Shown here: positions 21,232 through 24,243 of the stretch, one piece after another
Layout of the letters: the number at the start of each line of letters is the position of its first letter
Position numbering within the stretch: the first letter of the stretch is position 1
Assembly: GCF_003334355.1 (NCBI RefSeq)
Contig: NZ_QOWP01000002.1
DNA from: Escherichia coli
Lineage (GTDB): Bacteria > Pseudomonadota > Gammaproteobacteria > Enterobacterales > Enterobacteriaceae
Strand: one strand, 5' to 3'
DNA: 64,000 nt
Program-made: the position numbers and the translations under genes
Notes under the pieces: generated by a model
Told to the model about the DNA's origin: nothing
The model's input: only the letters and a program-made list of their open reading frames with translations
Databases searched by the model: none

Positions 21232-21243
21232 AAAATCCCAAAA

Positions 21244-21272
21244 AAAACCAACCATTACGGTTGGTTTTTTTA
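21244..21272. terminator. Bidirectional terminator shared by proL and convergent yejO
   Basis: Hairpin ccaacc atta cggttgg flanked by an A-run upstream and tttttttat downstream. Confidence 0.6.
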
Positions 21273-21332
21273 TATCTGCAATCAATTCGATAAACAGACC
21301 GTGACACATCACAGCCTGTTTATTTTCTGTTA

Positions 21333-23924
21333 TCAGAACGTCCAGACCACACCCGCCTGAGTATTCCACGGCGATTCTACCCCTGCGCCATTGCCATAGC
21401 TGACTGACAAATGACCGCTTAACGTCGGGGTAAACGATGACCTTATCCCAGCCTGATAAACGCCACGGGTTCCAGCCACATCATTATTAAATTTGCCATC
21501 GTCATTAACTTTCACCTGGTTAGAATCGGCGTATTCCTGACGTACGGCGGCTTTCAGCCAGGGTTCCAGCGTCGTACCATTTTGCAGGTCCATGTGATAG
21601 CTTACCGCCGTTCCCGCTTCAGCGCGTAATATCCGGGTATTTCCCACATCAGCGCGCATGCCGTTTGATAACGTGTAGTCCTGACCATCTGTGGTAAAGC
21701 CGGTAAAGGCCAGATAGGGTCTAACACTCCACAATCCGTCAACCCAACGGAACCCGCTCTCAACATGAGCACCCGCGCCGTTACTATTGTAATCGCCAAA
21801 CGCTGTTGCCCCATTACTCATCTTGCCATGGATGGTGTTGGCAAAACGGTCAACTTTCACCACCCCATCAACATAGGCACCGTTCTGATGCTCCCAACCG
21901 GCATAAGCCCCCAGGGTATAGCTATCGATATTACCTTTTCCGCCGCGATCAAAACCAATATCAGAATGAGAGTAACCAAAGAACAAGCCGCGAATTGTAC
22001 TGCTTTCTTCACGGGAGAAACGGCTATCGATACCGAGCGTCAGGCCCGTCAATGTTTGCTCAAAACCAGCTCCCGCATCAGTGGTCACGTTGTTGCGGGT
22101 GTTAATTGCCGAACTCCACATCGCCGTATCGTAACTAACGCCTTTTACGCTACCAAGACGCTCACGCACGGTGTCCAGTTCTGCATCAAATACCAGCGGT
22201 TGTGCGGCCGCCATATTCAGCACATCAGTGGTTGAAGGGGTAATTTGCGCGCGATTCTCTGCCAAACTCCAGCTATGGTTGCCATTATCCAGCAAGGTAT
22301 ATTCATACGTACCGATATCAACAACGCCTCCGGCATTGCCCAACGTGAATGCAGCATCACCGCCGCCCGTCGTTACCAGTGTAAGGCTATCTCCTGCTGC
22401 CGGGCTGGCCCCCGTGTCCGTCACGAATATTTTGAAATCACCTGTTGCCTGACCGGTCACGTTGAGCTGATCGCTCTGATGATTGGCCATATCGGTACGC
22501 ATATAAAAATTGCCGTTTCCCGACAGGGTATTAGTGGTCAACGTAATGAAATTTTCCGCACTTGCCGTCACAGATGAACGAGTCACTGGCTCATCCATCA
22601 TAATCACATTTGCGCCAGACATCGCAAGGTTGGCTAAATTGAGGCGGGTGTTTTGGTTCGTCGTAGTGATATCGGCAATGATGGTCCATGCGCTATTTTC
22701 GAGCGAAACATCCGCTTTGCTGGTATCCACGGCACCATGCGTTCTAAAAGAAGCGCCCTCAGAAACCACTACCTTACCCACCAACATAGCGGGTGCATAA
22801 TTTATTTGCGGCTTCATGACCTCAAGAATGCCATCATTCCCTCTGACTGACACGTTAACCATTGTGCCAGCCCAGACATTAGCGCGGCCATTGTTGATTA
22901 CCATATTTTCAGAGATGGCTTTTGAGGAATACGTGATACTTCCATTCTGGTCTGATCGACCGAGATCATATACCACATTTGCCTGCACTTTCGTACCAGT
23001 ATCCTTTCCCAGCGATTGCATAGTGGCATGCTCATCAAGGATAGTGTCAATGGCCTGCGTGTCCTCCATAACAATGAGCCCGGAACCATCATCCAGTTCA
23101 TAATTTTTTGACACACCATCTTTTATACTAAATTGGCCTTTACTGTTTGTACCACTCACTTCCAGCGCATTCGTTGAGACAATTAATTTTCCGCCTGCTT
23201 TTTTATCAACGCCAGTTGCAGTCCCGCCATCCATAACCTCCAGTAAGCCGCCACTATCTACAGTAGTATTATAAGCGAAGTCATTTTCTTCAACTCGCAA
23301 ACTCCCGCCGTTTTCCAACAGCATATTGTTAGCAATACCATTCTTGATTTCGAACTGACCGAGACGGTTTGTTCCGAATACCTCCATGACCCGCGTGGTT
23401 GCTTTAATAGCACCGCCTGCTTTCTGATCTACCGCAAATGCAAATCCCCCCTCTTTAACCTCCAGTAATCCTCCCTTTTCGATAGCGGCAAAGACGGTCC
23501 CCCCATCTTTTTCAACGATTAAGCGCCCGCCTTTAATCGTGGGATCATTCGCCGCGCTATAAACCTGTAGCACACCATTATTGAGCGTAGTCTGGTTTGC
23601 CGCGCCACCCATTTGAACAATTTGATAACCGTCATTTAATACTGAGTATTCTGCGGCGCCATTCATTTCAATGTACTGATACCCTCCGTTAATTTCAGTA
23701 TTATTACTTACACCAAATTCTTTTATATGCTGTTCTCCGCCAGGATTGATTTTCGTATTATTGGCGGTCCCATAAACCAGCTGGATATCTTTTTCCAGGA
23801 CAACACCATCAACTGTCTCACCATACTCAACAGTTGATGCCAATGCTATGGGTGAATATAACGCTGTAGCCACCAGAACAGATATTGCGGAACGACAAAG
23901 AGAAACAGAACCAGATTGATGCAT
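21333..23924 (-). CDS. yejO: Autotransporter (type Va) adhesin-like outer-membrane protein YejO, 863 aa, apparently intact
   Basis: Uninterrupted 863-aa ORF; N-terminal signal peptide; passenger with reiterated ~80-aa glycine-rich motifs; C-terminal beta-barrel domain ending ...AGVVWTF. Confidence 0.8.
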   Translation of the reverse strand: MHQSGSVSLCRSAISVLVATALYSPIALASTVEYGETVDGVVLEKDIQLVYGTANNTKINPGGEQHIKEFGVSNNTEINGGYQYIEMNGAAEYSVLNDGYQIVQMGGAANQTTLNNGVLQVYSAANDPTIKGGRLIVEKDGGTVFAAIEKGGLLEVKEGGFAFAVDQKAGGAIKATTRVMEVFGTNRLGQFEIKNGIANNMLLENGGSLRVEENDFAYNTTVDSGGLLEVMDGGTATGVDKKAGGKLIVSTNALEVSGTNSKGQFSIKDGVSKNYELDDGSGLIVMEDTQAIDTILDEHATMQSLGKDTGTKVQANVVYDLGRSDQNGSITYSSKAISENMVINNGRANVWAGTMVNVSVRGNDGILEVMKPQINYAPAMLVGKVVVSEGASFRTHGAVDTSKADVSLENSAWTIIADITTTNQNTRLNLANLAMSGANVIMMDEPVTRSSVTASAENFITLTTNTLSGNGNFYMRTDMANHQSDQLNVTGQATGDFKIFVTDTGASPAAGDSLTLVTTGGGDAAFTLGNAGGVVDIGTYEYTLLDNGNHSWSLAENRAQITPSTTDVLNMAAAQPLVFDAELDTVRERLGSVKGVSYDTAMWSSAINTRNNVTTDAGAGFEQTLTGLTLGIDSRFSREESSTIRGLFFGYSHSDIGFDRGGKGNIDSYTLGAYAGWEHQNGAYVDGVVKVDRFANTIHGKMSNGATAFGDYNSNGAGAHVESGFRWVDGLWSVRPYLAFTGFTTDGQDYTLSNGMRADVGNTRILRAEAGTAVSYHMDLQNGTTLEPWLKAAVRQEYADSNQVKVNDDGKFNNDVAGTRGVYQAGIRSSFTPTLSGHLSVSYGNGAGVESPWNTQAGVVWTF

Positions 23925-24243
23925 TGAGCTTTCATCCTATGAAATTAATTGCTGTTAAAAGCATTGGGTACAGAAAATACCCATAGCTCCATACCCGGAG
24001 TCAGTTTTTAAAAACTGTTTAAAGAAATGCACAAGTATTGTGATTGATTTTTTAGTTGTTTTTCTTGATGAGAAGCTGATGCAAAATTCCGTCTTTATAA
24101 TGAAAATGATGCCAAAGCGAACGACAAGGTTGTAGTTTTCACTACATGTCCATACATAAAATGGGGTAACATTCACGCGCCTGGTAGCGTTACCAACGCT
24201 ACGCTCAAACATAATGATTCTAATAAAACCTCAGGAGACTACT

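Follow-up and report, generated by a model that had tools for sequence, protein, structure and literature searches.

Is the autotransporter gene found between a tRNA-Pro gene and narP in this Escherichia coli genome a strain-variable, possibly horizontally acquired adhesin islet, as a preliminary description of the sequence proposed, or is it a long-standing resident of the chromosome? We addressed this question using a contiguous 64,000-nucleotide stretch of DNA (hereafter, the window) and comparisons with complete E. coli genomes and related species. The gene is yejO (b2190 in K-12), an already catalogued and ordinary chromosomal gene. It very probably encodes an AIDA-I/Ag43-like type Va autotransporter and is an ancient, maintained occupant of this slot that some lineages are now losing. 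The gene itself, its IS5 lesion in K-12 and its truncation in uropathogenic strains were all previously known from the literature and RefSeq. What is gained here is a population picture of yejO, quantified over 5,426 complete genomes, and evidence of purifying selection on its intact alleles.

An intact gene alone between proL and narP

The features of the locus are collected in Table 1. The open reading frame begins with ATG and contains no internal stop codon, as the preliminary description had stated from the sequence. RefSeq record NZ_CP116913 (strain MLI023K1) matches the region at 100% identity; it annotates the gene as yejO and shows no other gene between proL and narP, in agreement with the earlier depiction of yejO as solitary. 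The exact protein sequence is public and belongs to a 90% identity cluster named YejO that comprises 16,859 sequences.

Only 101 bp separate proL from the yejO stop codon. The hairpin within this gap is flanked by an A-run and a T-run, one at each side, and judging from its sequence it is likely a bidirectional intrinsic terminator serving proL on the plus strand and yejO on the minus strand. An Rfam search of the region returned the tRNA and no other RNA family. A scan for the sigma-70 consensus gave 2 matches in the region compared with 5.2 expected, and none in the intergenic interval 23925-24243. Because the scan gave no strong match, we infer rather than locate the promoters of yejO and narP, both of which should lie in this interval.

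Table 1. Features of the proL-yejO-narP locus (window coordinates; residue numbers refer to YejO).
Feature	Position	Strand	Basis and remarks
proL, tRNA-Pro (anticodon GGG)	21155..21231	+	ARAGORN; Rfam RF00005, 54.9 bits; upstream boundary of the slot
Hairpin flanked by an A-run and a T-run	21241..21271		Terminator scan, 14-pair stem; sequence reading
yejO coding sequence	21333..23924	-	863 codons plus stop, intact; RefSeq 'autotransporter YejO', WP_063096576.1
12-strand outer-membrane beta-barrel, residues 600-863, ending ...VWTF	21336..22127	-	PF03797, TIGR01414, AF2, Foldseek
Barrel segment lost in decayed alleles, 633 bp	21359..21991		Alignment; present in the window
Alpha-helical linker, residues 563-592	22149..22238	-	AF2 helix; Foldseek hits to BrkA and EspP over barrel plus linker
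Pertactin-like C-terminal passenger domain, residues 431-555	22260..22634	-	Pfam PF03212, E 5e-45; dN/dS 0.08
Span of passenger-side second deletions in decayed alleles	22362..23522		Alignment; present in the window
Most variable passenger block, residues 331-430	22635..22934	-	Identity to E. albertii and between allele classes
N-terminal passenger, residues 30-330	22935..23837	-	Beta-solenoid, 18-19-residue rungs, 74-residue duplication; AT-rich part
Putative signal peptide, residues 1-29	23838..23924	-	Read by eye; predicted AxA cleavage after A29
IS5 target site (ATAA, 4 bp)	23858..23861		Duplicated around the 1195-bp IS5 in K-12; empty in the window
Divergent yejO/narP intergenic region	23925..24243		AT-rich, 36% GC; 82% identity to E. 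albertii
narP, nitrate/nitrite response regulator	24244..24891	+	RefSeq record; downstream boundary of the slot; beside yejO in E. albertii too

Domain architecture and predicted fold

The reading of the protein as a complete type Va autotransporter, first made from its signal peptide, repetitive passenger and barrel, is supported by Pfam and NCBIfam profiles, AF2 and Foldseek, with the signal peptide read by eye. The N-terminus, MHQSGSVSLCRSAISVLVATALYSPIALA/ST (the slash marks predicted cleavage), can be read as a Sec signal peptide ending in an AxA site: the n-region is charged (R11), residues 12-26 form a hydrophobic core, and ALA/S lies at residues 27-30. AF2 leaves residues 1-27 disordered (pLDDT <50). 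In the passenger, Pfam identifies two strong AIDA repeats (PF16168) within residues 184-315 (E 4e-24 and 2e-21) along with weaker copies, and the Pertactin domain at residues 431-555. The 'heptosylation-target' repeats of TIGR04415 reach 58.9 bits (cutoff 30). The passenger is periodic, with z-scores of 8.2 at lag 74 and ~5 at lag 18-19, and a 222-nt direct repeat occurs in the underlying DNA (23191-23263 / 23413-23485).

The barrel matches the Pfam Autotransporter beta-domain PF03797 at residues 602-841 (E 2.7e-45) and NCBIfam TIGR01414 (E 5e-111; 371.9 bits, cutoff 16), and the protein ends in ...VVWTF, with the aromatic last residue that is a feature of the BAM-recognised beta-signal. In the AF2 model (pLDDT 87.3), residues 30-560 form a solenoid and residues 563-592 a helix, followed by the 12 strands of the barrel. 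The helix directly precedes the first of these strands and is predicted to pass through the barrel lumen. Modeling of the passenger as a beta-helix, a check proposed at the outset, thus yielded a beta-solenoid, and this resembles Ag43 by Foldseek (E 1e-21). The same search matched the BrkA beta-domain with a TM-score of 0.90 and EspP at 0.82-0.86. Among solved relatives, phmmer recovered Ag43 (1.7e-36), Vag8 (1.5e-35) and TibA (2.8e-26), as well as the BrkA barrel and pertactin.

By homology with characterized autotransporters, the 29-residue signal peptide would direct Sec export across the inner membrane, and the C-terminal 12-strand barrel (~600-863, with its final F) would be inserted into the outer membrane by BAM, with the linker helix 563-592 occupying the barrel pore. 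The ~530-residue passenger would then be threaded outward and, starting at its C-terminal, pertactin-like end, would fold at the cell surface into a right-handed beta-solenoid with 18-19-residue rungs. Residues 431-555 may serve as the autochaperone region, as in classical autotransporters.

Relationship to known autotransporters

Antigen 43 (Flu/Ag43) is the best solved relative of the YejO passenger. The two proteins each combine a beta-solenoid whose rungs span ~19 residues with a pertactin-like region and a barrel of 12 strands, but their identity in the structural alignment is only ~24%. YejO scores 126.7 bits against the Ag43 equivalog NF033177 and 70.8 bits against the AIDA-I equivalog NF033176, far under the cutoff of 1200 in both cases. 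It is therefore a relative rather than an ortholog, and its ligand could differ. By its profile scores, YejO belongs to the broader AIDA-I/Ag43-type group as a member in its own right.

The glycosylated adhesins AIDA-I and TibA have the PF16168 AIDA-type and TIGR04415 repeats in common with YejO. However, AIDA-I and TibA are accompanied by a linked heptosyltransferase (aah/tibC type), whereas yejO has none, its neighbours being only proL and narP. The Vag8 match covers YejO residues 459-860, that is, the pertactin domain and barrel. YejO shares nothing beyond the export module with the Bordetella proteins pertactin, BrkA and Vag8, which differ from it in N-terminal passenger and in host. Based on Ag43, AIDA-I and TibA, an adhesin or self-aggregation role for YejO is likely, and the surface solenoid would most likely act in adhesion or in aggregation between cells. 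Outside the orthologs, the closest relative (P0244; 58% identity) is encoded on a 3.5-kb metagenomic contig with an uninformative context.

Base composition and codon usage

The gene was initially described as AT-richer than its neighbours, and comparison with the 47 other genes of the window substantiates this, although the effect is modest and centred on the first 330 codons. Whole-gene GC content is 48.4%, compared with a mean of 52.6% (sd 2.8; z -1.5), and GC3 is 46.8% vs 57.4% (z -2.1), the second lowest value in the window. Only codons 1-330 deviate strongly (GC 44.5%, GC3 38.8%), and the barrel part has a GC content of 51.8%. Codon adaptation, which the preliminary description had proposed to compare with the flanks, is unremarkable: the CAI, calculated with weights after Sharp & Li 1987, is 0.271 vs 0.326 (z -0.7), and is thus not an outlier. 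A reference-free synonymous-codon likelihood computed against the window's own genes places yejO at z -1.3.

Decay in place across E. coli

Each of the 5,426 complete E. coli genomes carries yejO sequence at the locus, with coverage of at least 80% in 4,282 of them. The variation within the species is thus decay in place, contrary to the proposed pattern of an islet present in some strains and absent from others. Near-full-length copies that lack the K-12 IS5 occur in ~72% of the genomes (~3,900), as counted by length rather than by open frame.

Two routes of decay are evident. In the K-12 strains JM83 and MG1655, a 1195-bp IS5 interrupts yejO at approximately codon 22 and is flanked by a 4-bp target duplication. 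The gene is reported as a K-12 pseudogene with IS5 near its start codon (PMC11005336; PMC11677980), which accords with what the preliminary description stated of MG1655. The IS5 junction occurs in 356 of the 5,426 genomes (6.6%, the K-12 lineage). As first noted, the window copy is free of IS sequence, its target site being empty. In silico removal of the IS5 from K-12 yejO restores an intact 863-aa frame with 98% protein identity to the window copy (846/863), so this is the same gene and only its state differs. The window copy is the intact ancestral state of yejO. K-12 and Keio "ΔyejO" strains are uninformative regarding the function of intact YejO.

The second route is deletion. The junction left by loss of the 633-bp barrel segment is found in 1,123 of the 5,426 genomes (20.7%), including that of the type strain ATCC 11775. 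Second deletions occur on the passenger side, and extend from 22448 to 23452 in strain M-17 and from 22362 to 23522 in strain 200177. A passage in PMC3426408 that cites Wells et al. 2010 places YejO in commensal and diarrhoeagenic genomes and describes it as truncated in UPEC, and YejO is reported as missing in ST131 (PMC5654935). The repeated loss of yejO in extraintestinal lineages indicates that it is dispensable in some niches.

Is yejO cargo of the tRNA integration site?

The case for recent horizontal acquisition rests in part on location, as yejO adjoins proL and the tRNA-Pro gene had been pointed to as an integration hotspot. The latter view is well founded: proL is a live hotspot, and mobile elements of other strains use it as an attachment site. 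An insert between proL and yejO breaks their junction in ~485 of the 5,426 genomes (~9%), the inserts start inside the proL tRNA 3' end in matches H27-H29, a capsid-forming satellite-like element lies between proL and yejO in L012, and a prophage occupies the proL site in Shigella 1c (PMC4924310). However, these present-day elements insert between proL and yejO, so yejO lies outside them and is not their cargo. Of the hallmarks of a tRNA island, yejO displays adjacency to a tRNA, and its base composition stands out clearly in the first 330 codons alone; no integrase or other mobility genes occur between proL and narP, the proL 3' end (25-nt or 16-nt, ≤3 mismatches) does not recur near yejO or narP as an att-like distal repeat, and presence does not vary among strains.

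Two further observations would fit recent arrival: the low GC3, most pronounced in the AT-rich 5' third, and the distribution of the gene outside E. coli. A scan of species-representative genomes with exact peptide patterns recovered the E. albertii locus only, a result that is not proof of absence elsewhere. Because such a scan cannot show absence outside E. albertii, the slot was read in E. fergusonii, Salmonella and C. freundii using NarP homologs as anchors. In these taxa, unrelated small genes fill the proL-narP slot, and no YejO remnant was found there. Presence of yejO thus varies only between species and genera.

The E. albertii locus argues against a recent origin. An intact yejO ortholog that is 77% identical lies beside narP in this species, and the dS of the barrel (0.66) is close to that of ccmH (0.64), a core gene nearby; together these findings indicate vertical inheritance since before the two species split. 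Given this, the ubiquity of yejO sequence in E. coli and the unexceptional CAI, the recent, strain-variable version of the islet proposal is largely refuted, and we regard it as highly improbable. The broader suggestion of horizontal acquisition survives in that an ancient event, and only an ancient one, is plausible. We favour a history in which yejO entered the proL-narP slot before the divergence of E. coli and E. albertii and has been under purifying selection since, with ongoing loss in some lineages through IS5 in K-12 and deletions in ~21% of genomes.

Selection, expression and possible function

So, does the intact gene still matter? The independent losses through IS5 and through deletions, and the many shortened YejO forms in public data (609-771 aa), could be taken to indicate that intact copies are silent relics, without a current role and heading to pseudogenes everywhere. 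Expression evidence comes from K-12 alone, whose disrupted copy ranks near the bottom of an RNA-seq compendium (rank 4501), and our literature search found no experiment, phenotype, regulation or function study of intact YejO. However, a neutral relic is expected to have dN/dS near 1 and to accumulate stops. Instead, dN/dS is 0.13-0.17 within E. coli (PCP07014 and EDL933, both of the same allele class as the window) and 0.19 over the whole gene in comparison with E. albertii, with values of 0.05 for the barrel and 0.24-0.26 for the passenger. Intact yejO alleles are under purifying selection and the gene is maintained; YejO therefore probably has some role in commensal and diarrhoeagenic E. 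coli. Together with the prevalence of near-full-length copies without the K-12 IS5, this makes a functionally dead gene quite unlikely. The maintained gene may be expressed at low levels or silenced by H-NS through its AT-rich 5' end, a suggestion prompted by the AT-richness.

Sequence constraint is uneven along the protein. Amino acid identity to E. albertii is 35% in block 331-430 vs 94% in the barrel, and between E. coli allele classes it is 72-74% vs 97-99%. One could envisage that this block is a surface patch under diversifying pressure, and that the recurring deletion of yejO in B2/extraintestinal lineages is adaptive loss rather than neutral decay. We consider this combined proposal quite unlikely. 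If the diversifying reading were true, the source of the pressure could be allele-specific self-recognition, as for Ag43 classes, or exposure to phage, colicins or antibodies. A divergent class of E. coli yejO alleles occurs at ~92% identity.

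Identity of the locus and architecture of YejO

The window is E. coli chromosome. Positions 21100-24300 match strain MLI023K1 (NZ_CP116913) at 100% identity, and that record annotates the same ORF as "autotransporter YejO" (WP_063096576.1). The yejO of the window is an already known gene, whose position and character as an uninterrupted ORF between tRNA-Pro(GGG) and narP were correctly given in the preliminary description. No second gene, and no integrase, was found in the interval between proL and narP (the slot), nor was an att-like repeat of the proL end recovered when searched for.

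Features of the yejO locus (window coordinates)
Feature	Position	Strand	Remarks
yejO ORF	21333-23924	-	863 codons, no internal stop
tRNA-Pro(GGG), proL	21155-21231		one flank of yejO
Hairpin	21241-21271		A-run and T-run on its flanks; terminator-like, putative shared terminator
narP	start 24244		other flank of yejO
Barrel deletion in decayed alleles	21359-21991		633 bp
Direct repeat	23191-23263 / 23413-23485		222-nt spacing; 71% identity over 73 nt; codes the two strong AIDA repeats
IS5 target duplication in K-12	23858-23861		4 bp, within signal peptide
narP-ccmH spacer	24892-24925		34 bp, short uninserted form

Pfam models place two strong AIDA repeats (residues 184-245 and 257-315, with weaker ones besides), a pertactin domain (431-555, E 5e-45) and an autotransporter beta-domain (602-841, E 3e-45) in YejO, which ends in ...VVWTF. 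The NCBIfam autotransporter-barrel model scores 372 bits (cutoff 16). Since scores against the Ag43 and AIDA-I equivalog models fall far under their cutoffs, YejO is a relative of these adhesins, not an ortholog. The passenger has a periodicity of 18-19 residues and a 74-residue duplication, which is a 222-nt direct repeat at the DNA level. In some genomes matched in the search (H30 and H31), yejO aligns in two pieces spanning ~222 bp less than the query, and annotated YejO forms of 771 aa are abundant in public data; recombination between the two repeat copies might account for either.

The nearest solved structures by sequence are Ag43 (E 1.7e-36), Vag8, TibA, the BrkA barrel and pertactin. 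An AlphaFold2 model built with 65 homologs (mean pLDDT 87.3) has a disordered signal peptide (residues 1-27), a beta-solenoid (30-560), a helix (563-592) and a 12-strand barrel (600-862). Foldseek matches the modelled passenger to Ag43 (E 1e-21) and the barrel to BrkA (TM 0.90) and EspP (TM 0.82-0.86). Homology and fold thus make export by the standard type Va pathway the best-supported mechanism, and its end point would be a solenoid exposed at the surface as an adhesin or aggregation factor, a role suggested by likeness to Ag43, AIDA-I and TibA. No experimental work on intact YejO was found in the literature searched. Only K-12 data and the AT-rich 5' end point to low expression, and silencing by H-NS would be a guess.

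Distribution and decay in E. coli

Is yejO a strain-variable adhesin islet at a tRNA hotspot, as initially proposed? The slot does adjoin a hotspot, but yejO sequence is present at the locus in all 5,426 complete genomes searched. At least 80% of the query is covered in 4,282 of these; subtracting the 356 that carry the exact K-12 IS5 junction leaves ~3,926 (72%) with a near-full-length gene lacking this IS5, a count based on query coverage and the IS5 junction. Decayed alleles have in common a 633-bp deletion in the barrel and carry a second, of 1.0-1.16 kb, in the passenger. Type strain ATCC 11775 is one of 1,123 genomes (20.7%) with the 633-bp junction. This agrees with published accounts of a truncated YejO in UPEC (Wells et al. 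2010, cited through PMC3426408) and of its absence from ST131 (PMC5654935). Rather than a strain-variable islet, yejO is an already known gene, present throughout the species and undergoing decay in certain lineages.

In K-12, yejO is described in two papers as a pseudogene inactivated by IS5 (PMC11005336; PMC11677980). The element is 1195 bp long, and its removal in silico, with one copy of the 4-bp duplication, restores an intact 863-aa ORF identical to the window protein at 846 of 863 residues. MG1655 is among the genomes with the junction, in line with the preliminary description of IS5 at this locus in that strain and of an intact gene here. The lab strain DL21 (NZ_CP079747.1), whose genome is of K-12-like size, has yejO 98.4% identical, as the K-12 allele is, but its copy is uninterrupted and free of IS5; the strain either is a relative from before the insertion or has lost the element by precise excision.

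Where the gene is intact, it is under constraint. In the comparison with E. albertii, dN/dS is lowest in the barrel (0.05) and the pertactin domain (0.08), higher in the passenger (0.24-0.26) and 0.19 for the whole gene; the barrel dS of 0.66 is close to the 0.64 of adjoining ccmH. Intact alleles within E. coli give dN/dS values of 0.13-0.17. From these values, yejO is maintained where intact. The block that varies most is residues 331-430.

Evolutionary history of the slot

The junction between proL and yejO is unbroken in 4,941 of the 5,426 genomes, and the other ~485 carry an insert at the tRNA. In E. coli Z1323CEC0003 (L012 1-6210), the insert is integrated at the proL 3' end, directly upstream of intact yejO, and has genes for DNA primase, SSB, the major capsid protein, head decoration and the small terminase; its gene set resembles that of a capsid-forming phage satellite. 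Because such inserts sit between proL and yejO, the gene is not part of them.

We compared the yejM-proL-X-narP arrangement across species by anchoring on NarP homologs. In E. albertii NBRC 107761, an intact ortholog (862 aa, 77% identity) adjoins narP-ccmH, and tRNA-Pro is absent within 6 kb of the yejO stop codon (L005 8590-14586). SSB, FinO/ProQ-like and helicase-like ORFs lie downstream instead and point to a further mobile element at proL in this strain. The tRNA is in place in E. fergusonii, Salmonella enterica and C. freundii, where the cargo is, respectively, two small glycine-zipper/YmgD genes, a DinI fragment with pagL, and a dinI-like gene; tblastn found no YejO remnant at these three slots. 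As cargo differs among species, the slot is an old variable site, which yejO occupies in the lineage of E. coli and E. albertii.

NarP identity to E. coli is 86% in E. fergusonii (L006 10001-10645), 88% in Salmonella, 89% in C. freundii and 97-98% in E. albertii. So low a value is unexpected within one genus, and in E. fergusonii the surroundings of the slot may have been replaced. Beyond narP, K-12 (JM83) and some other strains have a BIME/REP-type insert of ~176 bp in the narP-ccmH spacer (compare L002 7993-8202), flanked on each side by a copy of the terminator hairpin (AGCCCGATGG...CATCGGGC).

Base composition

yejO had been described as AT-richer than its neighbours, which holds mildly and for part of the gene. 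Compared with 47 other window genes, its GC is 48.4% vs 52.6% (sd 2.8; z -1.5), GC3 46.8% vs 57.4% (z -2.1, second lowest) and CAI 0.271 vs 0.326 (z -0.7). The deviation is carried by codons 1-330 (GC 44.5%, GC3 38.8%) and extends to the upstream intergenic region (36% GC), but the barrel half has 51.8% GC. AT-richness is thus real, modest and regional, not gene-wide. The gradient is old and stable, since the E. albertii ortholog has the same kind (42.5% vs 49.1%). A 237-aa ORF at 3798-4511 (+), presumably lpxT/yeiU by its position on the K-12 map, ranks lowest in the window for both GC (44.3%) and CAI (0.224).
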